Source: a virus (lineage: Duplodnaviria > Caudoviricetes). From it: a stretch of DNA of 64,000 nt. The notes under the pieces were generated by a model. It was not told the DNA's origin. It saw nothing but the letters and a program-made list of their open reading frames with translations, and did not search any database. This document shows, piece by piece, positions 2,183 through 50,900 of this stretch. The stretch is taken from positions 32,001 through 96,000 of the IMG/VR virus record IMGVR_UViG_3300028833_005986. The stretch is one strand, 5' to 3'. The position numbers were made by a program, and so were the translations under genes. Every line of letters begins with the position of its first letter. The first letter of the stretch is position 1.

Positions 2183-5100
2183 TTATTGATCTTCTTCAAA
2201 CATTTTTTCGCTTACTAAATCATTATACAGTTTATTTTCAAGTTTTTTTCTAGCGTCTCCGTCCTCAACGGTATTTTGCTTTTCAATAACCCATTTAGGC
2301 GGATATTTATATATAGAAGTTTTTATTCCATTAGCATATTTAGTTTTAGCAGCTTGTCCCATAGATGCTTGCATAAAATTTATATATGTTTCCATTATAC
2401 CTTCTATAGTAATTCCTGTATCTCCGTTTCTTCGTTCTTTCCCGCGTTCATTAGCAGCCATATTATACCACTTAGATATAAATGATTTAGGAGTTCTAAT
2501 ATAAGCTAAACCATGACACAATTTAGCATCTGAACTTTTTAAATATCGTTTTACTTCTTCTTTTATGTCTGATAAATCTTGTAAAGCAGCTAATCCAATT
2601 GAAGATAATAAAGTATTAGCATCACTTACAGCATCTGCGATATACTGTAATTCTTCATCAATATTTATATTTTTAAATACTGTAAGTTTTCCCTTAAAGC
2701 CTTCTGCTTCTGCTTCTACTTGTTCCTTTTCCATTTCTGTATGAAGTTTATTAAAACGATTACTAATATTATATTTACCAGTTCCAAAAAATGCTACAGC
2801 AAATGGAGAAATCCTACCATATTGATCACAACAGCCTTCAATATAAGGCTCGACTCGAGCATGAATTGCTTTTATTTTTTGTAAACCTTCGTCAGTATTA
2901 ATATCAATATTATATAAAGTATTTATAAAATAAAATAATACTGATTGTCGTTTTTTATTATCTAATTCTAATATCGTATTACGTAATCTTTTTTGTATTC
3001 CTAATAAAATTTGTTCTTGTATTTTACCTAATTGATTTATTTTAATTAACCAATTTTTATTTAATTGGTGTAAATCTTTATCATAATAATCGTCTTCATA
3101 TTCTTTTTGAGTATCATATAATTGATTAAATATATTATTATATATCTGTTTTGCGGTACATTTTCCCCATACCGAATCTTTATATATAATATCAATAGAA
3201 TTCGCAATATTAAAACGCTTAAATGTTTTCCATAAATTTATATTTTCTCCGTATTTTATTAATAAGCATGTTTGAGTTTTTGTGCTATTATAAATTTTTA
3301 TATAGAATTGAGTATTTTCTTCTTCTCCAAAATTTTGCATTATTGAATTATTAGCTTCATTTTCATTGTTATCTGGATTTCTTGCTGCTATATTTTGATT
3401 TGATATCCATGTTTGAATTAAGCTATAAATATTATGCGGGTGATTACCGGATTTATTATTTTTTAATAATTTTCTGAATAAATATTAAAATTATATTTTT
3501 AATATTAAAATAAAATATTTTTAATATCTTTTAAAATAGATTTTAATATATTATACTTATATTTATGTATAAGCATAGATTATATCTTTATATAAAAATT
3601 ATATAAATAAAATTCAACAAAAATATTTACTATATATAATCGTTATATTATTTATTATAAATTTATAATGAATAATTATGAATTTTAATATAATTATTAT
3701 ATTTTCATAAATTATATTAATTATGCTACTTTATATATAAATAGCTTCATTAATATCATTAATTCTTTCGGTTGAGCATAATTCATTTATTTGATTTATG
3801 AAACTACCAATACTCGTACGATAGCTAGTTAATAAATTTGATATACGCTGTTTAGGATGCAGTTCTTCCCATGTTGCTATATTATCTTTAATAATTTGTG
3901 TACTAGATTTTAAACTGCATAAATCATCAATCATTTTTCGAAGATATTTTATAACTGTATGCCATCTTTCTGGAGAAAACTTTTTTTTAGCTTGTGCAGA
4001 ATTAGAATCGCGCTTTTTCATATATACGTCATTTAATTTTTGTAAAGTTTCTTCTAACGATGAAAATCCGCCATGTGATAATTCTAAAAAATCATCTAAT
4101 TTTTGATTATTAATTACATTTATAATTTCTCCAAAAGACTGATTCGTTACAGGTGTAATAAAATTATTTTTAGAATTTAAGGCCTTATATTTATTATTAA
4201 AGCATGTGTTACGGTATCTTTGTAATTTACTAGTATTATTTTTAATAGCATCAGTTAATTCTTTTAAAGTAGTAATATCATTTAATATAGGATTATTACT
4301 AAATGTTGAAGCTAAATTTAATGCTAATTGTCTAGCTCGTAAAAAGACATTATTATCGAATTCTTCTAATTTAGCATTTTCTTCAATAGTTAAATTCAAA
4401 TTTAATAAATTACGGCGTATATTAACTATACTACGTAATTGAGAAATAATAATATCAGCTTGTTTTGAAGTTAACTCCTTATCTTTTACGCGTTGATATA
4501 ATTTTTCAATTATATCATTACCAAAATATCTATGACATTCTTCTAAATTAAATTGCTCAATACCTTGTGGATCTAATAATATTTTACGATTATTAACCTT
4601 TTTAATAACATCTGGATCTGTTAATGCTGATTCGTCATATTTATCATAAATATTTGAATTTTTTAAAATTGTATCAAAAATAGCTCTTTTTAAATTATCA
4701 AATAATTGTTGATATTTATTTATATTAATAGATGCAAAGGAATTTAAACCTTCAACTATAGCTTTACGTAATTCGGTATACTGTTCAGATGCCAATGAAT
4801 TAACTTGTACTTGTTGATATTTTTTAAAAAAAATTTCAATTCGTCTTATTAAGGCAAAAAAACCATATACTTTGTTAAGCGTAGCTTCGCTATCTTGTGA
4901 ATCTTTTACGCCTTCTTTATAAATTTTATATATCTGATTAACAATACGTTCTTTATTAACATTAGTATATTCATTATGCGCACGATTTAACCAAGAAAAA
5001 GATGTAGCATAAATTGAATCTTTAATAATTGGTAGTAAATCAGCATAATATTTAGCTTGTTTTAAAAATTGCCTTATAAATCGAGCGAATCGCAATTGAA

Positions 5101-14436: not shown

Positions 14437-14890
14437 CTAGTCTTTCAATTGATTTAATCCAATTAGTATTAAACCACACAGTAGATTCACAATCCCAACC
14501 ATAAAGTTGCGGAAGTGTATAATCAATACAATGAATTCCATCGAATAATTTAGAAACTTTATTAAAATTAATCATATATTTGCCAAGAAATGAATCAAAT
14601 TGTTTCGGTAAAGAATTTAAATCCTCTTCATTATTAATTTCAAAAACTTTTAAATTATTTTTAGGTATAATTTTATATTTAATTTTATGATTTTTAATAT
14701 TAAATTCATTAATTTGGCACCACAAATCCCACTGACTACTATTTGTATCAATTAATGTTGATGTCCATAAAGCTTTATATGGTTTATTTAAGCTATTAAC
14801 AAAATTAAATTTTACCTTAGAAATACAAAAATCAGATGAATGAATTAATAATTGAGTATTAATTTTATTAGTAATCATTTTGTACCTCAA
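14417..14890 (-). CDS. conserved phage hypothetical protein (KP..LWTS / W..WC / DGIH / LYGWDCES motifs)
   Basis: Motif pattern recognised from recurrent phage proteins; function not assigned. Confidence 0.65.
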   Translation of the reverse strand: MRYKMITNKINTQLLIHSSDFCISKVKFNFVNSLNKPYKALWTSTLIDTNSSQWDLWCQINEFNIKNHKIKYKIIPKNNLKVFEINNEEDLNSLPKQFDSFLGKYMINFNKVSKLFDGIHCIDYTLPQLYGWDCESTVWFNTNWIKSIERLGDKNCA

Positions 14891-35686: not shown

Positions 35687-36686
35687 TAATTATATTGTTC
35701 TAATAACCATAATGCATCAACTTTTTCATTAATAAATCTATTTCTTAATCCATTAATTACACTTAAATTATAAGCGTGACAGAAATTATAAGTTGATCGA
35801 TAATATCCTAAATTATAATCCCAATATACAGAATCGCATTCACCAATTAAAAAGTTATAAATTTCAATAATAATATCATTATCAAAATATGCACTATCAA
35901 TATAGGATAAATTAGGATATTCAAATATATCTTCATTTACATATTCTAATAAGCTAATACATCCAGAATTGCCATTTTGAATCGCACGAGCAAAAATTAC
36001 ACTTTGCATTGCAAATGAATGTTTATCTATATTAAAATATTTAACTTTTAAACGCTGTAACACAGGATAATAATATTGACTTAATGCAAATTCATCTTGT
36101 AGCTTTTCAAAATTACCGGGATCAACATTACCTAATTGCTGCCACAATTTAATAAATTTATTACTATTAATAGTATACTTATTTAATTCTTTACCATAAT
36201 TCGCTAATCGAGGGTGTGAATAATTACATAACCATTGTACAAATTCATCTACTACTCCAACGGTAGATGAGAATTGATATTTCTAGTATATTTATTCAAT
36301 TTTTCTTTAAAAAAATTCTATATGTAATTAAATTATATTAGAATTTATTTGAAGAAAAATTGAATAAAATTATTAATCTATTTATATGAAATTAAATAGC
36401 ATATGACTATATCTTTATTAAAAGACTTTTAATAAATTTCGATATAATTAAATATATTTACTTATAATTAGTCGTTAGATAAATATTTATTATATTAATA
36501 AATATTTATTATTGATATATTAAATATTAATTATATCAATAATTATATATTATATTAATAGCATTAATATTTACCATAAGATTGTCCACCAATATCTCCA
36601 TAACCAGTAGAAACAAATCCTGGTCCGCGGCCAGAAGTTTCATATTTATTAATTAAATATGTAATAATTGGAATATATTCATTCAT
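35686..36686 (-). CDS. peptidoglycan hydrolase (VgrG3 C-terminal-like muramidase), spliced from exons 36686-36573 and 36282-35686 (236 aa)
   Basis: Spliced motif KYETSGRGPGFVSTGYGDIGGQSYG|KYQFSSTVG; later F..LQ.EF....YY.P, ARAIQNG, GLRNRF.NE. Confidence 0.85.
36283..36572 (-). ncRNA. group I-like intron, 290 nt
   Basis: P1 ATGGT/GCTAT (U.G); R CTAACGACTA, S AAGATATAGTCA; ends CTAG; restores the SYGKYQ motif. Confidence 0.92.
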
Positions 36687-37027: not shown

Positions 37028-37267
37028 TATATTAAAATATTACTTTATTAAAAAATAATTATATATAATAAAAAAAATGACTAAAGAAATTAAATCTCTT
37101 TAGCCTTTTTATGTGCTTATTTAAGTAAAATTCAATAATAATACTACTATTATCATTAACTCAGCATCTGAACTCTTAGTCTACTTATCACTATTCCTAT
37201 ATATGCTTTTTATATGACTTAACATATAATATAATCATGTTTTTAATTTTTAAATTATAACAATTAA

Positions 37268-40200
37268 TTAAAATGTTAATCTCCATGTACACTAAATAAT
37301 ATTGGACTATATAATTAATTAATAAAGTTATTATAGTCTCTGAAGAATATACAAATTCTTACTGATTAAATTATTATTAATTACTTTCAGTAATTTAAAC
37401 TTTTTATATAACTACTACATATATTAAATAGTTAATCTAGAACTTGCGTCTTTCTAATATATTATTATTTTAGCATATACTTAAAATATCTTATATATTT
37501 TATATAAGTTTAGATTATATCTTTTATATAATTAAATATAAACTATTATTATAATCGTTGTATATATAAATTATTCTTATATAATTTATATATTACTAAT
37601 TAATATTATTAATAATATTTTTAGTAAATAAATAATTTACGGAACAAAAATCTATTATAAGAATATAAAATTTTTATAATAATAAAAAACATCGTTCCAA
37701 ACTGGAAATACTTTCATTATTTTTTATTTGGACTATATCATATATAAAAATTATTTATATTAATATTACTAGTCTCTGATATGATTAATAATCATATACT
37801 GATTTATTTATTAAAAATAAATATTCCAGTAATTTTATTATTTTATAATCGTAAAGTATTTAAAATATAATCAAAATTTTATCAGCGATTGAACATATAA
37901 CCAGTATCTTTTCCAGCTCCATTTTCCCAGGCAGAAGCATTTCCGCCAAATATAGCCATTTCAGTAATTGGACCTACAGCTTCATCTTCATTAAATGTTG
38001 TTACTAATTTTAGAATATTCGTATTATAATCTTGCTGATAATTTTTAAAATATCTTCTCATCTTAAAAATTCATACCAATTAAGCTCTCTTGTTATTATA
38101 TATGTACTAATATATAATCAAATCAATCTACACTTCGCAGCGTATTCTAAAATCAATTCAATATATACTTATCTCTTATATATATCATAATCAATTCTAT
38201 ATTGATTCTTGAACTCTAATTCGTATTGGCGCTACCAGCGCACCTCTACAGTATAAAGTAGATATATCTTCATATAAATTATGTATATCTCGACTTTCTA
38301 TTAAGTCTTCATAAGATATCTTTCTACTTATAACCTTACCTTTATTTAACTGTTTTATTTTTTTATATTCTTTATTTAATAAATATTTCTTTAATATATT
38401 CAAAGATCCATTCATATCTGCATTTATTAATATACCATTCTTGGACTTATAAAGTCCTCTCTTTATTCTCTTACCTGCAAAGTGTTTCTTTTTTAATTCT
38501 ATCTTATCATTTATTGTTCTTAATACATATCCTAATTTTTCATCTTTTTTATATGATAATATATAATCATTATCTAAGAAAGAAGCTTTAGATGTAAATG
38601 ATTCTTCTTGAAGAACAAATTTAATATTATTCATCTTACATCTATATTCTAAATTATCTTTTATCTTACTAAATGGTATACTAGTAAAGAATTGATTATT
38701 TTTCTTACCTAAATTAGATTTTCTTTGAAAGTCATTGTTCCATCCTAATATAATAATTTTTATATTATTTTGTAAAGAATAATCTATTAATTTTTTACAA
38801 ATCTTATGGATATAATAATTAACTTTATTATTTCTTTTCTTTAATATATTATACATCTTTTTTGTATATCTTAATTTTTTATTAGTATTTTTCTTTTGTA
38901 ATTTACTAATAATTCTATTATATCCTTGATTTATAGATTTCAATTCTTTACCATCTAATATAAAACTATTAATTTTTTTCTTAGAATTATGATTATAATT
39001 AATACAAGTCATTAAATTATTAATGCCTAAATCAATTGATAAATAATTATTATTAACTTGTATATTATCATTAATTTCTATTTCATAGGTATAATGAATT
39101 TCAAAAATTTTACCTTTATATTTAGGAATTACTTGAATATATTTTATTTTTTTATCTTTTAATATAGCAGGTATTTTTATTCTAAATCTATCTTTACTTT
39201 TTAAAGTTAAATTATATTCTTTTAATATTTGATAACTTAGAGGAATAATCCATTCATTATTTTTATTTATATGAATTTTATTAGTTGGAAGTATAAAATA
39301 ATCATTTTTGTCTAAATATTTAGGAATATTACATTTTAAACCTTTTTGTTTTAAAGTGAAGAAAGATTTAAAATTTTCATCTATTATATATAAGATATTA
39401 CAACTACAATTAGCTTCTAATAATTTATAATTAATATTATTTTTAATACTATGATAATTATCTATATAATTTAAATATTTACCAATATTAAAGAAATATT
39501 GTCTAATATTATATAGAGCAGAATTATATAGATTTTTACTATATTTACATAATTTTTTAAATAATATATATAATTGTTTATATTTATATATACTGACTTG
39601 TTGTTTAACAGTTAAATAACATTTTTCTTTTTTATTGATATTATTTTTAAGATTTCTACTAATAATAATAATTCACATCTTTTTAATATTATAAATTTTA
39701 ATAATATTAACAGTTTAAATAACTATTAGTAATAGGATTAGATATTTTAAAACCTATTAAGCTTTGATTTTAATTAAAGCATAGATTATATCATTAATAT
39801 ATAAGATATATAATTAATGATTCTATAGAAATATACAATATTAATCGTTAGATAGATATATATTGATAAAATATATATTTATTATTGATCTATTATAAAA
39901 TTATAAATATTCCAATAAATAATTAAATTATCAAACCATTGTATGGTTCATCGTTTTCATCAACAAAACACCACGAAGTAAATTTCTTACGATATAATTC
40001 ACCTACTAATCTAGTATCAGTTAATTGTGCTTTATGTTCCACCTCTGGATCCATAATATCCCATAATACTGTATTAACTTTATTATTTACACGGTCATAT
40101 GGCTGATCTTCGTGTTCGAGAATACCAACGCCAACAGCTAAAACCTGTAAGCCTGTAATTTTTTGAATATCACTAACAGTAGTACCAGTTTCCGATTCCA

Positions 40201-40399
40201 TTACTGGTGCCATTCTCCAAGCCATTAATTCGCTAGCTTTATTAACAATTAAATTTTTTGTAGTTTGTTCTTTTGTAATTTCTTTAGCGCCTTCAATTTT
40301 ACCTGTTTTAGGATTATATTCTCCGCCTTTGTGCATAACCATTGAAATTTCGCCTTTAATTACATGCTGTTTTTTATAATCTTCATTATTTATACTCAT
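37268..40399 (-). CDS. baseplate/tail-associated structural protein, 5 exons (40399-39935, 38034-37885, 37714-37694, 37453-37428, 37289-37268; 227 aa)
   Basis: Spliced product NLIVN..LAVGVG..L.GELYRK..G|QDYNTNIL...F.E.EAVGPITEMAIFGG...MFNR|KVFPVWN|KDASSRLTI|TWRLTF* forms one coherent phage structural fold. Confidence 0.82.
37290..37427 (-). ncRNA. group I-like intron, 138 nt
   Basis: P1 TAACTAT/GTAGTTA (U.G); R TCAGAGACTA, S TATAGTCC; ends TAGTG. Confidence 0.85.
37454..37693 (-). ncRNA. group I-like intron, 240 nt
   Basis: P1 TGGAAC/GTTCCG (C-G at the splice site); R CAACGATTA, S AAGATATAATCT; ends TTAG. Confidence 0.8.
37715..37884 (-). ncRNA. group I-like intron, 170 nt
   Basis: R TCAGAGACTA, S GATATAGTCC; ends AATG; candidate P1 AATCGC/ACGATT (C.A). 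Confidence 0.8.
38035..39934 (-). mobile_element. IStron-like element 1: group I intron core + tnpB + right end/omegaRNA, no transposase
   Basis: R CTAACGATTA, S GATATAATCT; tnpB downstream of the core; ends AAAAATTATCAG; highly similar to 45905-47822; removal restores the host frame. 5' end placed by alignment and frame. Confidence 0.85.
38197..39672 (-). CDS. tnpB: IS607-type TnpB RNA-guided nuclease (~491 aa; frame open to ATT codons at 39672, ORF track truncated it at 39012)
   Basis: YLTVKQQ, SKNLYN, IDLG, QEESFTSKASFLD, KRGLY, INADMNG, RG.L..P.RI; collinear with 46076..47557. Confidence 0.88.
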   Translation of the reverse strand: MIIISRNLKNNINKKEKCYLTVKQQVSIYKYKQLYILFKKLCKYSKNLYNSALYNIRQYFFNIGKYLNYIDNYHSIKNNINYKLLEANCSCNILYIIDENFKSFFTLKQKGLKCNIPKYLDKNDYFILPTNKIHINKNNEWIIPLSYQILKEYNLTLKSKDRFRIKIPAILKDKKIKYIQVIPKYKGKIFEIHYTYEIEINDNIQVNNNYLSIDLGINNLMTCINYNHNSKKKINSFILDGKELKSINQGYNRIISKLQKKNTNKKLRYTKKMYNILKKRNNKVNYYIHKICKKLIDYSLQNNIKIIILGWNNDFQRKSNLGKKNNQFFTSIPFSKIKDNLEYRCKMNNIKFVLQEESFTSKASFLDNDYILSYKKDEKLGYVLRTINDKIELKKKHFAGKRIKRGLYKSKNGILINADMNGSLNILKKYLLNKEYKKIKQLNKGKVISRKISYEDLIESRDIHNLYEDISTLYCRGALVAPIRIRVQESI

Positions 40400-40570
40400 A
40401 TATTTTTATCTCCATTCTTTTATTTTTTAATATAATATTTATTAATAAGATAATTTGTTAATTAGATTATTAATTTATCTATATAATAATATTAATATAA
40501 TTAACGAATTAATTAATAAAAAATAATATTAATTTATTAAATAACTAATAAATTAAGTAATATTAATTTG

Positions 40571-42162
40571 TTATATAGCTAACAAATTAATAAATTCAAG
40601 TTCTTTACGTAATTGCTTATTTTCTTCTATTAAAGCTTCAATTCCTTTAGTATGAATATCCATATTATCTTGAGTATCTTTTACATAAGTATTAAAATTA
40701 CTTAATTGTAAATATTTCGTATTTAATTCATTCGTTCCTAAAAATGCTTGATAGCGCTGATCTTGTATATCATTCCAATAAATTACATTAGCAAATTTAC
40801 CGTCTAATGATACTCTATCGGATATAGAACTAAAATTTTGCCAATTAATTGCTCCATAAATATTATGATAAGCATTATAGCCGGTTGTGTTTAATCTAGC
40901 GACTTCAAATAAAGGTATTGCATAAACATATCCATCCATAGTATTAAAGATATTCATAGTTTCTGCGCCTTTACCTGCAATAAACATATGCGGGTCATTA
41001 AACGGTTCAAAATCAGCCGTAGTATATATATAATCTAAATTATCATAAACTTTTGGACCTTGCTGATATTTTTTAAAATATCTTTTCGTATTTTAAAAAT
41101 TTATTAAGCTTTAATGATTTAGTTAAAGCATAGATTATATCATTAATATATAAGATATATAATTAATGATTCTATTAGTATATACCTATAAAATTAATCG
41201 TTAAATATATATTTATTATTAATAAATATATATTATTGATCTATTATAATGGTTTATAAATATATCAATAAATTTTAAATTAATAATCCCTTATAAGGAT
41301 GTATATCTAAATCTTCAATACGATTTTTACCGTTATCATAATGTAATTCATGTTTATCTTCAATTGCTCTAATACACCATTGTAATTGAATTCTAGTTGT
41401 GCTGGGAATAGAAATACGATGATCAATCATTTCAAATGCTACTGAATCATTAGCTATACCACCAAATAAAGGAATGTCATCTCTAAATTTAATTTCTTTA
41501 AACCAAAATTCTAATATTACTAAATCTTGGCGTCTAACAGATGTAGCTGTAGGTGGAGGTAAATATACAACTAATCCATCGCGTTTACTTGATTCAATTC
41601 TTACAATATGTCCATGTAAAACTGCATGAAATGGATTAATAATAAAATTATTTAATTCTAATTGTGAGCCAATAGTACTAGCATCTTGAATAATATGATC
41701 ATGTTTATCTCTAATTAAAAATTGATGTGCTTTATATGCGCCTAATTCATCAGTATTAGCATTATTTGAAATTTGTAAGCATCCTGAATGCGTCATAGTT
41801 CTAATTAATTTTGCTCGTTCTTCAATCTGAATCCATTGAAGTTCCTTTATATATTTATATATTTAAATATACTTTTTAAATACATTTTTATTAAAAGTCT
41901 TAAAATAAAAATGGTTAGACTATATCTTTTTTTAAAAATAAAAATTATTATATAGTCGTTGAATATATAGATTTTTATATAAAAATTTATATATTACTAA
42001 ATAAATTGATTATTTTTAGTAATTAAATAATTCGATTGGAACAAATTTATTCCATTCATCTTCAATTAAGAAAGCATCTGATCCACCTTTTAATGACAAA
42101 AAATTAACAGTAGGATCAAATTTACCTTTCGCATTTCGTGAAAAATCAGGAAAATATGCCAT
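40571..42162 (-). CDS. virion structural protein, 3 exons (42162-42049, 41844-41287, 41062-40571; ~387 aa), paralogous to the N-terminus of 27189-31424
   Basis: IEDEWN|ELQWIQ, RQDLVILEFW, STTRIQLQW, YAIPLFEVARLN, DGKFANVI..NDIQDQR. Confidence 0.82.
41063..41286 (-). mobile_element. 224-nt tnpB-less intron of the same family as the IStrons
   Basis: Shares the 5' core (ATAATAGATCAATA, TAACGATTAA, AGAATCATTAATTATATATCTTATATATTAATGATATAATCTATGCTTTAA) and the 3' end (AGATATTTTAAAAA.TATCAG). Confidence 0.85.
41845..42048 (-). ncRNA. group I-like intron, 204 nt
   Basis: P1 TGGAAT/GTTCCA (U.G); R TCAACGACTA, S AAGATATAGTCT; ends AAAG. Confidence 0.92.
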
Positions 42163-42301
42163 TTACCTTTATTCACCTCAAATAGTATATTTATTTTTTG
42201 AAATAAATATTTTTATTTTCTTTACAATGAATTTTTATTTTTTACAAAGAATTTTTTTCTTTATAAAAAATTTTATTTTCTTTTCTTTATAAAAATAGAC
42301 T

Positions 42302-43003
42302 TTAATCTAGCATAAACAAATACGGATATACATTATTTAATAATACTGTTATTAATTCTTCATATGATTGAGTATTATTTATATCGTTTTTTAATTTATC
42401 CGGTATATTTTTTATTTCACTTATATTAATTAAAAAATATTTTATATTAATTAAATCTTGTTCTGATAATTCTCTATCTATATAGAAATGAAATAATGAA
42501 GTTAATATATCTTTATTATCAATTTTAGATTTTTCAATCTTTTCATTTTCTATTTTAGATTGTTCTTGAGCATTTATTATTTGTTCTTTAATACTATTAC
42601 TAATTATTTCATTTAAATCAGATGAATAAATTCGTTCTGAGTTAAAATATTGATCCATTTTAGAATCAATATCTTGACTTATTTGCATTTTTATATTATC
42701 TAATTTATCAAATATAATTTGATTTATATTATCAGATTCTTTATTCTTTTCTTGTATTGGAAATTTAGTATTAATATTATTTATAATTTGATGATTAATA
42801 CTATGATTACTTTTCTTTACAGTATATTTATTTTTTGGTAAAGTAACCAATTGTATATCATTATCTTCAATAATATTTAAAAAGCCGCTGGAAATTAATT
42901 TTTTATATGGATTTAAACTAATACTTCTAATTTCTTCCCCAGGCTTTATAAATTTTCCTAATATATCTAGTGTATTATTTGATACATTTTTTAATTTATA
43001 CAT
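42302..43003 (-). CDS. hypothetical protein
   Basis: ORF track. Confidence 0.7.
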   Translation of the reverse strand: MYKLKNVSNNTLDILGKFIKPGEEIRSISLNPYKKLISSGFLNIIEDNDIQLVTLPKNKYTVKKSNHSINHQIINNINTKFPIQEKNKESDNINQIIFDKLDNIKMQISQDIDSKMDQYFNSERIYSSDLNEIISNSIKEQIINAQEQSKIENEKIEKSKIDNKDILTSLFHFYIDRELSEQDLINIKYFLINISEIKNIPDKLKNDINNTQSYEELITVLLNNVYPYLFMLD

Positions 43004-43021
43004 TTTTAATCAACTACGCTT

Positions 43022-44620
43022 TTAAGTTTTATAAAAATATGAACCAGTTTGTAATAGAAATTTAGTATTATTATTACTATTATTATTACCTATTTTATTA
43101 TTAACATTATCTTCAATCGTAGTAACAGTTCCATCTGCATTTATATGTTTTAACTCTGTAATAACATTAAAATTTGGATGATAATATTCAAAAATATATG
43201 TACCTGGATCTAAAAAAAATATATATTTACCATTACTATCAGTATAATCTTGTGCACGAATATTTTCTTCACAAATTGTATCATCTTTATAAAAAACATT
43301 TACTTGTACTTCATTTATTGGATTATTCCATTTATCTTGTATTATATCTATAATTTTTAATCTACCAATTCCATTATTAATTACTGGTATATTAGAATTA
43401 GTTAATATATTAGCAGTAATATTATCCATCATAAATGTGCCATCAGGTAATACTTTTAATCGAAATATACGATTAAAATCAGTATTATCTAAAGTACCAT
43501 TTACTTTTAGTATATAAAATCCTTCGTCTAAATATAATTCCCATACTCCATTAGTATCAGTATTAGTTTCAGCTATTTTTATTGCTGGATTTATTATGTC
43601 AAAAACAGTAATATTTAAATTATATAATGGTTGTCCTGTCTTAGTAGTAAATGAATCTGTTAATCTAAATAATCCTGTACCTTGCAAAACAGAATTATTA
43701 CTCAATGAAATAGTTTCAAATAATAAATGATTATTATCATCGGTAATTTCAGTATATACAATTTCATCATTATAACCATTACGTGAAAAAATAAATTTAT
43801 ATTGATTAGGATATAAATAAGCTTCCCAATAACCTTCACGATTTGTTAATGATTGATATACTTTAGATTCAGTATTAATTTCTGTATTAGTTTCATAAAT
43901 AGATACTCTAACATCCTCGGCTGGAATAGTGGTATTTTTATAATTAACATAACCAGTAATTTTTACAGTATCCTCATATATAGAGGACTGTTGAATAATA
44001 TAAAACATTTCCATAGTATGAGCAATACTATTATCGTTACATTTATCAAAATTTAAATTCTGTAATTGTATATCGTCTAAATATTGCTTACTAATTAAAT
44101 CATAATATTTTTTATTATAAATAGATTTATATATAACTTGATATTGTCCAGGAGATAAATCATAAGGAATTGAATAATTATAATAAAATTCATTATTACC
44201 CATAGTTAACATATTAGTCCAAGGTAAATCTTCATATATATTTCCATCATTATCATGTAAAATTCTACATTGCATTTGGTGTGAAATTTGTTCTACAATA
44301 ACACAATCTTCAATATTTAAATCTTCTAATGAATGTACATAATAATTTGATGTCCATGAATAGCCATTTAAATATATATTAGAATAATATGAATTATATG
44401 CATAATAAGTAGTATCCCATGCAGTATCAACTAAATAATCAGAATAATATCTCATATATTGATCATAAGTAACATATTCACCATTGATATATAAGCCATA
44501 TTTGGAATTATCTGTAGCAATATGATTAAGATCTTCTTGATGATTAGTAATAATATTTAATCCTGGCTGAAATGATGAATATAAAAAGATAACTTCTCCT
44601 GGAAAATAAACATTTTTCAT
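43022..44620 (-). CDS. virion protein with three carboxypeptidase-regulatory-like (Ig-like) repeats
   Basis: Three P..V.V.....T...G.(W/Y)...L.PG.Y repeats. Confidence 0.7.
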   Translation of the reverse strand: MKNVYFPGEVIFLYSSFQPGLNIITNHQEDLNHIATDNSKYGLYINGEYVTYDQYMRYYSDYLVDTAWDTTYYAYNSYYSNIYLNGYSWTSNYYVHSLEDLNIEDCVIVEQISHQMQCRILHDNDGNIYEDLPWTNMLTMGNNEFYYNYSIPYDLSPGQYQVIYKSIYNKKYYDLISKQYLDDIQLQNLNFDKCNDNSIAHTMEMFYIIQQSSIYEDTVKITGYVNYKNTTIPAEDVRVSIYETNTEINTESKVYQSLTNREGYWEAYLYPNQYKFIFSRNGYNDEIVYTEITDDNNHLLFETISLSNNSVLQGTGLFRLTDSFTTKTGQPLYNLNITVFDIINPAIKIAETNTDTNGVWELYLDEGFYILKVNGTLDNTDFNRIFRLKVLPDGTFMMDNITANILTNSNIPVINNGIGRLKIIDIIQDKWNNPINEVQVNVFYKDDTICEENIRAQDYTDSNGKYIFFLDPGTYIFEYYHPNFNVITELKHINADGTVTTIEDNVNNKIGNNNSNNNTKFLLQTGSYFYKT

Positions 44621-44701
44621 TATACATCACTTTTTAATATATTTTTTATATATAAAGAAAATAAGTAGAAAATTTATGTAGTTAGAATGTGGTGATGATT
44701 T

Positions 44702-45276
44702 GTGGAAAACTGCCTTCTACTTTTAGCATGTCTATTATTTTCTTTTGCAGGTAATTTAATTCAACAAATTTATAATAATAAAGTATATTCATCTATTCAA
44801 TCAATGCTATATCATGCATTAGTATCATCCGCGGCTGGATTTATTTTTTCCTTAATATTAAGTGAATTTATATTAAATCCATTATTATTAATTTTTTTAT
44901 CTGGCGTTGGCGGATTTTTAGGCATAACTTATAGAGTGTCTAATAATTAATTTAATTTATTAAAATAATTTTTATAAAATTGATTAATATTATATTAATA
45001 TATGATATTAATATAATTAACGACTAATTATATAAAAAGTAGATTTTATTGAAAAAATATAATGTAATTATATAGTCTTATACTTATATGAATAATATAA
45101 GCAAATATATTAATCAAGGATTAACATTTATTTTACAGCATAAATTTAATATTGAACTTAACGATTTATTACACAAAAACAATACACAGTATATGTTAAT
45201 ATATAATAATAGCATATTAAAAATATTACAGCAACCACATAAACATATACATTTACAAATTATAAAAAAAGAATAA
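44702..45276 (+). CDS. holin-like membrane protein, spliced (exon 44702-44925 + exon from 45102 or 45120)
   Basis: Three hydrophobic segments, LSGVGGFLG motif; both candidate 3' sites join GGC AT| in frame with 45088..45276. Confidence 0.65.
44926..45119 (+). ncRNA. group I-like intron, 176 or 194 nt (3' end G45101 or G45119)
   Basis: P1 TTAGGCAT/GTGTCTAA (U.G); R TAACGACTA, S TATAGTCT. Confidence 0.82.
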
Positions 45277-45300
45277 TATAAATAAATATATTATTCTTTT

Positions 45301-45576
45301 TTATTTAAATCGCATATTATTTAATATAATTTCATTAACATTTGTTAAGTTATCATTATTAACAACAAAATAAATATCATTACCCCAAACTTTAAATATA
45401 GAGTTGCAATTAGGACATATTTTAAATCCAGAGTCTTTTTCTAAATGATATAATGATTTACATATTGGACATTTATTAGCTCTAACTTCTGCTGCATCTA
45501 ATAGCTTCATTTTTTCCATAGGATTAGTTGCAAAACAAGCTTCACAAGTTATATTTTTTAATAAATCTGCATTCAT
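45301..45576 (-). CDS. small zinc-ribbon protein
   Basis: CPIC...CPNC. Confidence 0.7.
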   Translation of the reverse strand: MNADLLKNITCEACFATNPMEKMKLLDAAEVRANKCPICKSLYHLEKDSGFKICPNCNSIFKVWGNDIYFVVNNDNLTNVNEIILNNMRFK

Positions 45577-45649
45577 ATAAAGCTATCTCTCTAATTATAT
45601 TTTTTCTTGATTATACAAAACTATCAATTATATTGACGTATATAATTGA

Positions 45650-47888
45650 TTATATATAATTATCAATTATATTACCAATATAATAATAATTATTATAATT
45701 TAATAAATAATTTTCACTATATGTATTTTCACGATCAATTGTTGTTTTAAAATCGTTTATATATGTTTCAATGTCATCTATACCATTTATACCTTTCATT
45801 GATTTTTTAATATCATCAATCTGAGATTGTGCTTTATGCTGCTGATAATTAATAAATTTATATTCACTAATCTCATTAACTTGATGTATACGTTTATATT
45901 TATTCTGATAATTTTTAAAATATCTTCTCATCTTAAAAATTCATACCAATTAAGCTCTCTACTTCTCAATATATTAATCACTTAATATATCTAAAATCAA
46001 ATCAATCTACACTTCACAGTATATTCTAAAATCAATTCAATATATACTTATCCTTTATATATATCATAATCAATTTCATATTGATTCTTGAGCTTTAATT
46101 CGTATTGGCGCTACCAGCGCACCTCTACAGTATAAAGTAGATATATCTTCATATAAATTATGTATATCTCGACTTTCTATTAAGTCTTCATAAGATATCT
46201 TTCTACTTACGACCTTACATTTATTTTTATTTAACTGTTTTATTTTTTCATATTCTTTATTTAATAAATATTTCTTTAATATATTCAAAGCACCATTCAT
46301 ATCTGCATTGATTAATATACCATTCTTGGACTTATAAAGTCCTCTCTTCACTCTCTTACCTGTAAAGAGCTTCTTTCTTAATTCTACTTTATTATCTATT
46401 GTTCTTAATACATATCCTAATTTTTCATCTTTCTTATATGATAACATATAATCATTATCTAAAAAAGATGCTTTAGATGTAAATGATTCTTCTTGAAGAA
46501 CAAATTTTATATTATTCATTTTGCATCTATATTCTAAATTATCTTTTATTTTACTAAATGGTATACTAGTAAAAAATTGATTATTTTTTCTACCTAAATT
46601 AGTTTTTCTTTGAAAATCACTATTCCAACCTAATACAATAGTTTTTATATTATTAGCTAAGCAATAATCTATAAGTTTTTTACAGGTCTTATGAATATAA
46701 TAATTAATTTTATTATTTCGCTTCTTTAATATATTATACATCTTTTTTGTGTATCTTAATTTCTTATTAGTATTTAATTTTTGTAATTTACTAATAATTC
46801 TATTATATCCTTGATTTATAGATTTTAATTCTTTACCATCTAATATAAAACTATTAATTTTTTTATTAGAATTATGATTATAACTAATACAAGTAAATAA
46901 ATTATTAATACCTAAATCAATAGCTAAATAATTATTATTAACTTGTATATTATCATTAATTTCTATTTCATATGTATAATGAATTTCGAATATTTTACCT
47001 TTATATTTAGGAATAACTTGAATATATTTTATTTTTTTATCTTTTAATATAGCAGGTATTTTTATTCTAAATCTATCTTTACTTTGCGAAGTTAAGTTAT
47101 ATTCTTTTAATATTTGATAACTTAAAGGAATAATCCATTCGTTATTACTATTAATATGAATTTTATGCGTAGGTAATATAAAATAATCATTTTTATCTAA
47201 ATATTTAGGAATATTGCATTTTAATTTTTTTTGTTTTAAAGCGAAGAAAGATTTAAAATTTTCATCTATTATATGTAAAATATTATTACTACAATTAGCT
47301 TCTAATAATTTATAATTGATATTATTTTTAATATTATGATAATTATTATTATAATTTAAATATTTATTAGTATTAAAGAAATATTGTCTAATATTATATA
47401 AAGCAGAATTATATAAATTTTTACTATATTTACACAATTTTTTGAATAATATATATAATTGTTTATATTTATATTTACTAACTTGTTGTTTAACAGTTAA
47501 ATAAAATTTTTCTTTTTTATTGATATTTTTTTTAAGATTTCTACTAATAATAATCAACTACCTTTTAATATTAATATAATAATATAAATAGATAATGATT
47601 ATTAAAAAGTAATAGGATTAGATATTTTAAAATCTATTATACTTTAATATTTAATTAAAGCATAGATTATATCATTAATATATAAGATATAAGATATATA
47701 ATTAATGATTCTATAATAATATACAATATTAATCGTTAGATAGCTATATATTGATATAATATATAGCTATTATTGATCTATTATGAGATTATAAATATTC
47801 CAATAAATAATTAAATTATTAAACCATTATTAGGTTCAGGCATATTAAATAATAACCATGAAGTATCTGTTATATACATATTCATCAT
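45650..47888 (-). CDS. small tail-fibre-associated protein, spliced from exons 47888-47823 and 45904-45650 (106 aa)
   Basis: AGGAGG RBS; MMNMYITDTSWLLFNMPEPNNG|NKYKRIHQVNE in frame. Confidence 0.7.
45905..47822 (-). mobile_element. IStron-like element 2: group I intron core + tnpB + right end/omegaRNA
   Basis: Same architecture and termini as 38035-39934. Confidence 0.87.
46076..47557 (-). CDS. tnpB: IS607-type TnpB RNA-guided nuclease
   Basis: AIDLG, VLGWN, QEESFTSKASFLD, INADMNG; no C4 zinc finger. Confidence 0.92.
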   Translation of the reverse strand: MIIISRNLKKNINKKEKFYLTVKQQVSKYKYKQLYILFKKLCKYSKNLYNSALYNIRQYFFNTNKYLNYNNNYHNIKNNINYKLLEANCSNNILHIIDENFKSFFALKQKKLKCNIPKYLDKNDYFILPTHKIHINSNNEWIIPLSYQILKEYNLTSQSKDRFRIKIPAILKDKKIKYIQVIPKYKGKIFEIHYTYEIEINDNIQVNNNYLAIDLGINNLFTCISYNHNSNKKINSFILDGKELKSINQGYNRIISKLQKLNTNKKLRYTKKMYNILKKRNNKINYYIHKTCKKLIDYCLANNIKTIVLGWNSDFQRKTNLGRKNNQFFTSIPFSKIKDNLEYRCKMNNIKFVLQEESFTSKASFLDNDYMLSYKKDEKLGYVLRTIDNKVELRKKLFTGKRVKRGLYKSKNGILINADMNGALNILKKYLLNKEYEKIKQLNKNKCKVVSRKISYEDLIESRDIHNLYEDISTLYCRGALVAPIRIKAQESI

Positions 47889-47919: not shown

Positions 47920-50900
47920 TTATGCTTTATAAATGCGATATCTAATAGTAAAAGTATCTGATGGTGTTTCTTTTGCATATAAATAAAAGCATCCCGATGC
48001 TGAAACTGTAAAGTCTGCTAATCCTGCTGCACGAGCTATATTTGTATTACTTGCTAATTCTACTTCAACTACATCATTAGCTGTTAAATTACTAACATTT
48101 ATTTGATATCGCCGTGCATATGATATATTATTAATAGTAGTTGCGGTGGTATACCAAGCACCAGCAGTTGTAGAACTGGTAGTAGTTGTTTTTGCAATAG
48201 TTACTGCCGAAGCATATGTATATTTAGTCATATAAGTAGTATCAATTCGCTGTCCTTTAATATCTTGCAGTGCTTGTAAAGCATTAATACCCATAGGTTG
48301 GAATTCGCCATTTACGTACTGCCAATATTGATTATATAAAAGATTTATATTCATTTGATATGTAGAATATGATCTACCAACATATAAATAGGTATATCCG
48401 TCTTCACTAGTAGGAGCTGTAGTAGTTAAAATATCAGAATGTACAGTAAAAGTATTACCAGATAAAGTACCTTTTAAATATACTGGTTTCTTTTCTGCAA
48501 ATGTTCTTGATGCATTATCAACTATTGTTTGCATATTAGCACCAATACTAATCCAATACAAACTTGTACTCAATGCAGCTGCATCAGCCACCGTTGATCC
48601 ATTAAATAATACTGGATGTCGAATATCAAAAGTATCTCCTGCATTAAGTTCTTTATATGCTATGCCATCAGTTGTACCTACAAATCTTGCAGCAGCAATA
48701 GCACCATCAGCAGTTGCTACTGGATTCGCTATTCTTATTCTATCATAATAGTTGGCATCATAATCAGCAAGTACAAACCAATAAGTACCATTATAAATTA
48801 ATGGAACATAATAATTCGCACTATATTGTGTTGTTAATCGAGTTGTAGAGTATCTATAAATTGCTTTTGCGCCTGTTGTACTTCCACCTGAAAGTGTAAG
48901 ATTTAATGTAGCATTACCAGAACTCGAATATGGTAATTTATAAATAATCATTTTACCAGTATATAGAGCAGCATCTTTTGTTACGCCAGTCCAAGCACCT
49001 GTAACTGCTGTTTGAGTACCTACAATATATTCTATAGTGTGTTCACTAATCTTTTTACCATTAGAATCATTAGTAGCTGTAGCAGCTGTTCCGCTAATAT
49101 TAATCCCCCAAGTACCTGAAGCATCTCCACCTGTTCTACTAGGAACTGATAAAGTTGTTCGCATTGCTGCTACATCTGCATCATCTAATAACGTTCTTGC
49201 TATAGCTGTTAATGGTGTAGTTGCATATGTATTAGAAGCAGTTGTATAAATCATTTGATTTGCAGAAGTAGCTAACCCACTAATAGAAGTTAAAGCTGCA
49301 TGAGCACTTTGTTTAGTAGTAATAGCATTATTTAATGTAGTATATACACTAGCATCTTTATTAATAGCATTAGCAATTTCTTCCAAAGTATCTAATGTAC
49401 CAGGTGCCGCACCAATTAAATTATTAATAGCATTATCGACAAAAGCTGTAGTAGCTACTTGTGTAGTCTTAGTGCCTAATGGAGCTGTTGAAGCTGTTAC
49501 CGTTCCTGTAAATGCAGCACCAGCCAGTTTAGCATAAGTAGTATTAATTGGTTTATTATCGCTGTCATTAGTTGCTTTTGTTGCAGAATCAGCATTACCT
49601 GTTAAATTAGCTTTAATTGTCGCAGGCAATTTAAGAATAATATTAGAAGATCCATCAAAACTAGTAACAGCACCTGTATTAGCAGCAGTAGAATCTTGAA
49701 TACTAATAGATTTTGCAACAGCTAATTTAGTAGCAGTATCAGCATTGCCGTCTAAACTTGCTTTTATAGTCGCTGGTAATCTTATATTTAATACAGAAGT
49801 ATTACTTCCATCAAAACTAATAGCCGTACCAGTATTCGCTCCAGAACTATCTTGAATATTAATAGATCTTGCTGTAGCTAATTTAGTAGCTGTAGTTGCA
49901 TTACCAGTTATACTACCAGTAAAAGATTGTGCAATTACTCCCGCAGGAAATGTAACGTTATTATTTATATCCCAAGTATAGAATCTGTTATGACTAACTA
50001 TATTGTGATCAGAAAACCACCAGTTACCACCATAAAAACGAATATCATTTAATGATGGCGAACCATAACTAGCATTTACTGTTGTTTGTTTAAAAGTCAT
50101 ACGCAATGCATACATATTTCCTGATTGCGAAGCAGATTGATTAAAACCTTGTACTTGATTGAAATAAATTATATTATTTCCTGACCATCCGCTTAATGGC
50201 TTCTCAGTAAATAAATTAATCCAAGTATCAGTATCTTTATCTGCAAATTTTTGCCAATCAAGCGTTACATTCCAATTATTACCATTAGTGGAGCCCCAAA
50301 TATATAAAGCATTTACACTAACATATCTACCTGAAGGCATAATAGTAATACGTAGCTGATTATTAAGACTATTATCTGCTTTTACAGATGCTTTACCTAA
50401 GAACATGTTAGTAGTACGTAATTCCATAAAGATAGCCTTTTTTTGATCATCAGTTAAACCATAATCAATCCATGTTTTGCCGCCATCGCGTGAATATTCT
50501 ACAATAGTTGTCGCGCCACTAATACCAAATGTTTTATTAGATGCCCATGCTCCTACGCGATTACCAGTAATCCAGTCTAAATTACCTGCTATACTTTCTG
50601 TTGTGGTATTAATTGATGATGGAGTAATATTACCAGATATATTAGTCGCTTGAATATTAGTGGCTGATAGTGTAGATGTAGCGGGATTAACTTTTACTCC
50701 AGAGCCAAAAATTGCTGTATTCGCACCACGATTTGTTGATGCATTTTCTGTAGATACTAATAATACTGGGTATGTTGCATCCGCAGTAGATACATTTTGC
50801 GTCATTAGTGTATCAGTATTAGTATCGCCGTATAATGTAGTAGTTGTACCATTTATAGTAATTTTACCTACTTCAGTACCAGAAGTCTTTGTTTGTGTAA

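Follow-up and report, generated by a model that had tools for sequence, protein, structure and literature searches.

What kind of element carries an intron-like core and a tnpB gene into two late genes of a phage, with no transposase beside it, and by what route could it spread? The question is raised by elements A and B, two closely related insertions on the minus strand of a 64,000-nt stretch of DNA (hereafter the window), which comprises bases 32001–96000 of the 166,990-bp IMG/VR virus record IMGVR_UViG_3300028833_005986, itself ~34% complete (CheckV). Positions refer to the window unless genome coordinates are named. We propose, with a probability of roughly 0.6, that A and B are transposase-less IStron-like elements, each a compact group-I-type intron whose last peripheral hairpin, formed by a 5' and a 3' inverted repeat (IR), holds tnpB and a 3' guide-RNA (ωRNA) scaffold, and that they spread by RNA-guided homing. 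Their anatomy, the existence of empty sites, the covariation of the RNA and purifying selection on TnpB are observed and are presented in turn below.

Anatomy of elements A and B

The two elements are each ~1.9 kb long and ∼88–94% identical to one another. Both consist of a ∼200-nt non-coding 5' part, a TnpB reading frame and a 160–170-nt non-coding 3' part ending in ...UAUCAG; this conserved right end (TATCAG), noted in the first-pass annotation from the letters alone, stands directly before the downstream exon in A and in B. The parts of the elements, including an open reading frame (ORF)-less sibling called C, are listed here; IGS denotes the internal guide sequence, P1–P9 the intron helices and TAM the target-adjacent motif.

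Element A
38035..39943, minus strand: whole intron (1,909 nt); the host gene is homologous to Bacillus phage G gp190
39944..39949, minus strand: end of the 5' exon, GAACCA; forms P1 with the IGS UGGUUU and is the predicted TAM region
39933..39938, minus strand: IGS, UGGUUU, within the string AATGGT of the first-pass annotation; covaries with the exon and belongs to the P1 given by RNAalifold
39741..39943, minus strand: ribozyme core, beginning with the 3' strand of P1; covariance model R1, 197 bits; six helices with covariation support
39884–39916, minus strand: P4–P5
39852–39882, minus strand: P6
39842–39848, minus strand: 5' strand of P7, AACGAUUA
39790–39821, minus strand: P8
39783–39788, minus strand: 3' strand of P7
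39761–39780, minus strand: P9
39741–39752, minus strand: 5' IR
38197..39669, minus strand: tnpB, open over 491 codons, 91% identical to that of B, with no ATG, GTG or TTG start
38035..38244, minus strand: putative ωRNA scaffold, ending at the 3' splice site; conserved, with compensatory hairpin changes
38228–38244, minus strand: GC hairpin, within the 3' end of tnpB
38043–38054, minus strand: 3' IR
38019..38034, minus strand: predicted guide, the first 16 nt of the 3' exon, CAAGATTATAATACGA, placed by its position relative to the conserved right end

Element B
45905..47831, minus strand: whole intron, 1,927 nt, in a 102-aa gene directly downstream of a 2,285-aa tail-fibre gene
47832..47837, minus strand: end of the 5' exon, GAACCT; supplies the exon strand of P1 and is the predicted TAM region
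47621..47831, minus strand: ribozyme core; covariance model R1, 182 bits
47821–47825, minus strand: IGS, GGUUU
47621–47632, minus strand: 5' IR
46076..47557, minus strand: tnpB, 493 aa, TTG start after AAAGG
45905..46123, minus strand: putative ωRNA scaffold, ending at the 3' splice site; conserved, with compensatory hairpin changes
46107–46123, minus strand: GC hairpin
45913–45924, minus strand: 3' IR
45889..45904, minus strand: predicted guide, AATAAATATAAACGTA, matched 16/16 by the empty sites in contigs L054 and L053

Element C
41063..41295, minus strand: ORF-less sibling intron (233 nt); the host gene is homologous to phage G gp423; empty allele in contig L022

In both A and B the tnpB gene is flanked by UUUUAAAAUAUC ... 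GAUAUUUUAAAA. Element C pairs the same flanks as a plain hairpin; in A and B, tnpB thus occupies the loop of an AU-rich terminal hairpin, 7 nt before the 3' end. The IR stem thus formed measures 11–13 bp and lies 7 nt before the 3' splice site, an arrangement that, with the direct repeat described next, agrees with the definition of IStrons by Tourasse (2014), and it differs compensatorily between the two subtypes of the family described below (UUUUAAAAUAUC/GAUAUUUUAAAA in the A-type versus UUAUUAAAAUCU/AGAUUUUAAUAA in the H-type). A direct repeat (DR), AGCTTAAT.., follows the core and recurs upstream of the 3' IR.

Intron-less alleles and the predicted splice junctions

The first-pass annotation had placed both insertions after GAACC....AATGGT. 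That string is common to both genes, and removal of GGT|...CAG| also preserves the reading frame, which was the basis of the first 5' boundary. A 5' splice site after AATGGT was rejected, however, as empty alleles and homologues place the site 9 nt upstream. With the old boundary, the spliced gene A contains three extra residues, YNG, that neither phage G gp190 nor >20 metagenomic homologues possess, whereas with the new boundary it aligns across the junction with gp190 and the >20 homologues at equal length. The missing YNG, the empty alleles and the pairing between exon and IGS together moved the site, so that only GAACCW is exon, and TAYAATGGT forms the first 9 nt of the intron and includes the IGS. 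Because the exon end at the new boundary pairs with the intron's own GG(G)WU(U), AATGGT is the L1 loop plus the IGS.

Five empty alleles were found at four sites: site A is empty in contig L021, site C in L022 and site B in both L054 and L053, and the fourth site, occupied in L022, is empty in the window itself. At site A, L021 reads GAT GAA CCG CAG AAT TAT, the window GAT GAA CCA [intron] CAA GAT TAT. In L022, gene C is a continuous gene of 330 aa that reads CAC CCG|CAA GGT; L022 also holds a family member at a gene A site that is empty in the window. L054, a 3.5-kb Logan contig from SRR7634052, is 100% identical to window positions 49885–47827 (2,059 nt upstream of B) and 45904–45459 (446 nt downstream), and precisely the stretch 47831–45905 is missing from it (with a 5-nt AATAA ambiguity); it is either a coexisting intron-less variant (DNA) or a spliced late transcript (RNA). 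L053, ∼82% identical, reads GAG CCA AAT AAA TAT at site B, and the gene B homologues L053 and P0146/P0147 read ..NMPEP|NKYKRI.. across the junction. The combination of occupied and empty sites varies among phages that are 82–100% identical. Intron-less alleles carrying the predicted guide targets, which the first-pass annotation had expected TnpB to cut, exist at site A (L021, imperfect match) and site B (L054, L053).

Several other models of the junctions were tried. A 9-nt exon tag left in the mRNA was rejected, since P1 covariation makes these 9 nt part of the intron (L1 loop and IGS). A model in which the element inserts between CC and G and takes its terminal G from the target was rejected by L054 (CCT) and L053 (CCA), and IS607 crossover models with GG, GT or AG cores failed to give the junctions seen. 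Phage records searched with a 224-nt core, the first-guess extent of intron C, gave no match, and neither did viral contigs scanned with the exon of gene A.

P1 and the group-I-like core

Twelve copies from the record and from metagenomes share the exon motif RAHCCW, in which A at −5 and CC at −3/−2 are invariant. In 11 of the 12 the exon end pairs with the intron's GG(G)WU(U) over 5–6 bp, and the P1 helix is likewise predicted by RNAalifold. The pairings are as follows.

AUCCU with GGGAU
AACCU with GGGUU
GAACCA with UGGUUU
GACCCA with UGGGUU
GAUCCA with UGGAUU

The two strands covary, exon −4 being A, U or C with U, A or G in the IGS, and exon −1 being U or A with G or U. The 5' splice-site pair is U.G in eight copies, A-U in three (A, E107 and L040) and U.U in B. 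An earlier candidate for P1, AAUGGU paired with AUUAUU, is superseded. At the other end, every copy with a defined 3' end finishes in ..AUCAG, its terminal G directly preceding the in-frame 3' exon.

Between these ends lie six core helices in canonical order (P4–P5, P6, P7, P8, P9). A covariance model, R1, was built from seven copies. Over 43 core pairs, 96.2% of the alignment cells are paired, against 85% when shuffled and 30–50% when slid, and 22 of the 43 pairs change on both sides, against 7.1 ± 2.0 (shuffled) and 3–6 (slid), figures taken from an alignment fitted to the model, which favours the structure. In P7, AACGAYUA pairs with GAUAUARUCU with a C bulged, and GAUUA/UAAUC is replaced by GACUA/UAGUC in three copies. 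These R and S boxes equal those aligned by Rfam RF00028 in the T4 td and nrdB introns. RF00028 itself matched no copy at its gathering score or at E ≤ 10, with T4 td (40.3 bits) and nrdB (35.7 bits) as controls, and a search for the P3 pseudoknot gave only 4–5-bp candidates (UUUA × UAGA; UUAU × AUAG) that fail in some copies. The gap between P7 and P8 is 20–24 nt and the ORF-less form is 233 nt in all, which leaves no room for the IA2 hairpins P7.1/P7.2. We read the ribozyme as a strongly reduced and probably IA-derived form, whose catalytic competence is suggested by the conservation of the exons.

The 3' end and the predicted guides

From within the 3' end of tnpB, a conserved, structured RNA region extends as far as the 3' splice site, where it ends. 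RNAalifold gives 63 pairs for this putative ωRNA, seven of them changed on both sides. A GC hairpin, GGUGC..GCGCC, within the tnpB 3' end is kept by coupled codon changes (GCG..GCG to GUA..ACA in the divergent subtype). The last stem of the fold pairs the 3' DR with the 3' IR, the same 3' IR that forms the intron's IR stem, so the intron fold and the putative ωRNA fold are mutually exclusive. Such a folding conflict has been published for IStrons (10.1101/2023.11.20.567912).

With the 3' splice site at the end of the structured region, the 3' exon would supply its first nucleotides as the TnpB guide (CAAGATTATAATACG.., AATAAATATAAACG..), the arrangement known from published IStrons (10.1101/2023.11.20.567912); the first-pass annotation had expected a guide at this place, and the position agrees with it. 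By analogy with tested IStrons and IS605 TnpBs, the TAM would then be the exon end. Since AATGGT is intron-internal and RAHCCW is the target-adjacent sequence, the predicted TAM is approximately AHCCN, the exon motif being (R)AHCC(N), and the earlier expectation of a TAM resembling AATGGT falls away. The B guide is matched at 16/16 positions by the empty site of L054, next to GAACCT, and at 16/16 by that of L053, next to GAGCCA. The empty site of L021 mismatches the A guide at positions 3, 4 and 15.

The TnpB protein

The protein scores 149.5 bits with NCBIfam guided_TnpB NF040570 (cut-off 100), 61 bits with Pfam OrfB_IS605 PF01385 and 27.7 bits with TNB PF07282. A sequence search of the PDB gave no match, and the contig index had no entry for TnpB B. 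An AlphaFold2 model of TnpB B has a predicted local distance difference test score (pLDDT) of 71.8, and Foldseek aligned it, at E values from 6e-15 to 2e-8, with Cas12f, ISFba1 TnpB (8iaz), ISDra2 TnpB (8h1j, 8exa) and mimivirus Fanzor2 (9b0l). The ratio of non-synonymous to synonymous change (dN/dS) among four copies is 0.20–0.27; TnpB is under purifying selection.

In an alignment of 14 relatives, D214 (AIDLG), Gly310 (IVLGWN), Q-E356-E357-S and D419 (NADxNG) are invariant. According to this alignment Gly310 occupies the place of the canonical RuvC-II Glu, and E356/E357 is the relocated Glu, E357 preceding by six residues the place of the first zinc-finger Cys. No Cys pairs (CxxC) occur in residues 358–415 of any close relative aligned. 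The replacement of Glu by Gly, the EES motif and the lack of a zinc finger, all described in the first-pass annotation, thus hold throughout the aligned relatives. Its further claim that this RuvC arrangement marks IS607 elements does not: a relocated Glu is published for several TnpB clades and for Fanzors (PMC10691335, PMC10711439), and RuvC-I here reads DLG. The 'alternative Glu' geometry of RuvC is known (PMC10711439), and Gly in place of the RuvC-II Glu has been described for a large TnpB clade (PMC10691335); loss of the finger is also reported for some branches (PMC10691335).

The start of the frame differs between copies. The TTG start of B reads TGA in A, where ATG TGA directly precedes the tnpB frame (39660–39700, minus strand) and no ATG, GTG or TTG precedes it; the other copies have AAAGG..TTG. 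Copy A would need translation from a non-canonical start (ATT), or would rely on the TnpB of sibling copies.

TnpB has >7,000 database relatives. One of 417 aa, P0024, is encoded by a plain intergenic tnpB in a phage and not by an intron. The closest bacterial homologues are 40–44% identical, plasmid-borne and solo (P. sordellii pCS1-6, locus L010; a P. larvae plasmid, L050; Butyrivibrio pCY360, L051), with no TnpA beside any of the three. The P. sordellii tnpB lies between two short 'hypothetical' ORFs, and the other two loci have an unannotated gap of 280–620 nt upstream. Rfam scans of bacterial homologue loci gave no intron match; of these three loci, that of P. sordellii was covered, and nothing at all was found in it. 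These homologues might be unrecognised IStron-like insertions.

Further copies and genomic setting

Although A and B are real, the first-pass count of two elements was too low: the whole record has six tnpB matches, and several ORF-less copies accompany them, C within the window. The tnpB copies are the following.

38197..39669, minus strand: A
46076..47557, minus strand: B
107908–109834 (genome coordinates): third full copy
Further matches in the record: one copy cut by the contig end, one of a 56%-identical subtype and one decayed

Element C shares with A and B the core and the last ∼40 nt, its IR hairpin being closed by an 8-nt loop. Further ORF-less relatives were found by Blast and by the covariance model from seven copies. 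The divergent ones share the R box AACGAYUA and the S box GAUAUARUC; they lie between ORF fragments at window positions 36280–36560 and 3480–3724 (minus strand), and at genome coordinates 3409–3572, 14451–14531, 115663–115888 and 117480–117774. One gene outside the window carries three divergent ORF-less introns in a row. A second subtype of tnpB intron, also outside the window, is found at genome coordinates 164052–165990 and 110175–∼112300 (loci L019 and L016), with TnpB 51–56% identical; its exon end is ..AUAGU|AUCUUAAUU, its IR stem is compensatorily different, and one copy is intact and the other decayed with six stops.

No serine recombinase or resolvase (PF00239) and no Y1 transposase (PF01797) was detected in the 167-kb record, ∼34% complete. 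The anatomy accordingly agrees with the first-pass description of transposase-less elements made of a group-I-type intron and TnpB.

The window has a G+C content of ∼20%. Its genes resemble those of the 497-kb Bacillus phage G, and those around the elements include one for a 2,285-aa tail-fibre protein (PHROG tail-fibre families). The source is a giant, very AT-rich phage of lytic type; the IMG/VR label for the record is 'provirus'. Spliced gene A stops at ..GYMFNR*, and its homologues run ∼25 residues further (KSFPVWNK..RLTITWRLSF; window 37225–38034, minus strand); the remainder is probably split by further small introns downstream. Gene C, similar to phage G gp423, has an extra ∼200-nt gap (∼41850–42046, minus strand) between two gp423-matching segments. 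The gap is present in the relative L022 too, and its intervening sequence recurs near gene A (∼37460–37650); it is probably another small intron family. A related phage contig (L009:12621–12847, JGI 3300031992) contains a HEARO RNA, the IscB-type ωRNA family (Rfam RF02033, 99 bits), and genome positions 101505–101915 of the record, outside the window, are 75% identical to that stretch, so judged by sequence the record may hold a second kind of RNA-guided nuclease element.

Relation to known IStrons and phage introns

We file the elements, on their sequence features, as a phage-borne, transposase-less variant of IStrons that appears to be new as a variant. They resemble the group A IStrons (CdISt1/CdiIStrons of Clostridioides difficile, IS200/IS605 type; PMC4227781, PMC13565253) in having the intron 5' and tnpB with the putative guide-RNA region 3', an exon-final U pairing with a G of the IGS in most copies, a UCAG end, a 3' splice site at the predicted border of scaffold and guide, and target specificity on the 5' side only. 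Unlike group A, they have RAHCCW (AHCCU where the final U is present) and not a T-rich pentanucleotide as target, no Y1 TnpA or remnant (PF01797 is absent from the record), no GC-balanced subterminal palindromes, and a ribozyme of 233 nt without ORF (published IStrons ≥482 nt) that is RF00028-negative, has no room for P7.1/P7.2 and departs from the IA2 form with P7.1/P7.2 and P9.0–P9.2 (Tourasse 2014). Their host is a lytic-type giant phage with many copies.

With the group B IStrons (BcISt1, CboIStron, and CbISt3/CbISt4 of the C. botulinum phages c-st and D-1873) they share the long AU-rich IR stem around the ORF, a DR upstream of the 3' IR, ORF-B-only and ORF-less derivatives arising by deletion between repeats (PMC4227781), phage genomes as hosts and mutually exclusive predicted intron and ωRNA folds of the 3' end. 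For IS607/group B IStrons, insertion follows GG and the element's end reads CGG (PMC4227781, PMC13565253). The present elements instead have a 5' splice site after U or A, not G; they insert after ..CCW and end in UCAG, and show neither the GG target (AGGG/TGGG) nor the CGG 3' end nor a serine recombinase or remnant. The 'IS607-type' assignment of the first-pass annotation is not supported by these features, the recombinase being missing from the record and from the flanks of the closest bacterial homologues alike.

Phage group I introns that encode a protein homing endonuclease (T4 td/I-TevI, nrdB/I-TevIII; PhiPA3 gp210, PMC11620839) are similar in carrying the ORF in a peripheral loop, in R and S boxes (AACGACUA, GAUAUAGUCU, identical to those of T4 td and nrdB), in presence/absence polymorphism among relatives and in the role expected in co-infection homing and competition. 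They differ in that the nuclease here would be the RNA-guided TnpB, with the 3' exon setting its specificity and each new insertion automatically retargeted. The ∼200-nt group I intron swarms of huge gut phages (Jug, crAss-like; PMC12880540) likewise place many small introns in essential and structural genes of a single large genome, but were reported together with stand-alone HNH, GIY-YIG or LAGLIDADG genes, tnpB being unmentioned in that paper. Among nucleases, TnpB is closest in kind to those with a rearranged RuvC-II (RIIr clades, PMC10691335; 'Ealt' TnpBs and Fanzors, PMC10711439), sharing Gly for Glu, the alternative Glu and the TnpB/Cas12f/Fanzor2 fold; compared by motif, it departs from them in the complete absence of the zinc finger and in RuvC-I DLG rather than the pro-Fanzor DPG.

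Proposed mechanism and alternatives

In the proposed mechanism, the exon end RAHCCW of the pre-mRNA would pair with the IGS (U)GG(G)WU(U) to form P1, and the core would fold through P4–P6, P7 with the IA-type boxes AACGAYUA and GAUAUARUCU, P8 and P9. The IR stem would carry the terminal G to the core, and splicing would restore the reading frame of the intron-less alleles exactly. In an alternative local fold of the 3' end, pairing of the 3' DR with the 3' IR together with the GC hairpin in the tnpB 3' end would give the ωRNA, with the first ∼16 nt of the 3' exon as guide. TnpB (D214, relocated E356/E357, D419, no zinc finger) with this ωRNA would cut intron-less alleles of co-infecting relatives where AHCCN lies beside the target, and recombinational repair from an intron-bearing genome would copy the intron in, amounting to homing and possibly to exclusion of competitors. 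ORF-less copies such as C would arise by deletion between the direct repeats flanking tnpB. Splicing, ωRNA production, the TAM, cleavage and homing we infer. The mechanism of IStrons and homing by TnpB are published (10.1101/2023.11.20.567912, PMC10055086, PMC13565253), as is a competition effect of an intron-encoded protein nuclease in a different giant phage (PMC11620839); by analogy, homing during co-infection is the most likely function, and a role in phage competition is plausible.

Several observations weigh against this proposal. The 5' splice-site pair departs from U.G in A and two other copies (A-U) and in B (U.U), RF00028 misses every copy although published IStrons were found with it at ≥20 bits (PMC4227781), and no convincing P3 pseudoknot could be defined. 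Copy A has no canonical start codon, and L021, with its mismatches at guide positions 3–4, may escape cleavage. The limited completeness of the record means that a tnpA could lie elsewhere. Finally, the family occupies at least 10 different genes without a transposase, a spread for which a trans-acting transposase, reverse splicing and off-target cuts are the candidate routes.

This last point lends some weight, as a minority chance, to the view that the introns splice but are spread by a TnpA acting in trans, coming from the host or from the two thirds of the phage that the record lacks, or by IGS-directed reverse splicing, TnpB only preserving copies or tuning splicing. The occupied genes are many and unrelated with dissimilar 3' exons, a distribution beyond the reach of allelic homing; the IGS changes with each exon; in published IStrons TnpB binding lowers splicing and TnpA does the transposing (10.1101/2023.11.20.567912); and two thirds of the genome lie outside the record. 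The 167 kb at hand have no resolvase or Y1 match, however, nor is there a TnpA beside the closest homologues, and the termini fit neither the IS607 GG/CGG rule nor the T-rich targets of IS605 (PMC13565253). Perfectly matching empty targets exist for B, and the catalytic residues of TnpB are all kept under purifying selection. The same residues bear on whether TnpB has become a nuclease-independent RNA-binding protein, for example a maturase-like factor or splicing regulator for the many tiny introns of the phage. A ribozyme so unusually small, with no recognisable P3, P7.1 or P7.2 and beyond the reach of RF00028, makes a protein cofactor plausible, the zinc finger is lost and exapted TnpBs are known (PMC10691335); yet these usually lose the catalytic residues (PMC10691335), whereas D214, E356/E357 and D419 are invariant here. 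Since ORF-less copies such as C also stand in genes that need expression, and most small introns of the record have no linked tnpB, we consider such an exaptation quite unlikely.

Very unlikely, in our judgement, is that the elements are plain, non-splicing IS-like insertions in a decaying provirus, the genes being dead or expressed as fragments. The 'provirus' label of IMG/VR, the failure of Rfam to match an intron, the missing start codon of copy A and the six stops of one copy outside the window could be read in this way. Against them, every insertion examined preserves the frame, and its removal gives the intron-less allele exactly in structural genes conserved as far as phage G; P1 and the six core helices covary, and the exons beside B are 100% conserved. 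RNA-guided homing of a splicing intron is the reading that we prefer.

Significance

Clostridia and bacilli provide the established cases of IStrons and of homing by TnpB, and a review of 2026 proposes that TnpA-less IStrons could spread by intron homing. IStrons in C. botulinum phages (PMC4227781) and swarms of small group I introns in huge phages (PMC12880540) have likewise been published. A bolder extension, which we regard as unlikely, is that TnpB-ωRNA has taken the place of the transposase as well as of the protein homing endonuclease, so that at least 10 genes of one genome were colonised at RAHCCW with the IGS retuned for each exon, by a transposase-independent route (IGS-directed reverse splicing, or off-target TnpB cuts, followed by capture). 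If this were true, the new 3' exon would become the new guide after capture, giving a self-retargeting mobile intron whose specificity is set by RNA only. A zinc-finger-less TnpB with a relocated Glu and a C-rich predicted TAM (AHCCN) may, if active, interest genome editing.

The ∼230-nt ribozyme is missed by current models, and similar elements are therefore probably under-annotated in phage metagenomes. With near-identical tnpB introns, ORF-less derivatives and sister genomes, whose empty sites fit the predicted guides without a mismatch in one case and with mismatches in another, the locus offers a natural test bed for the homing of TnpA-less IStrons.

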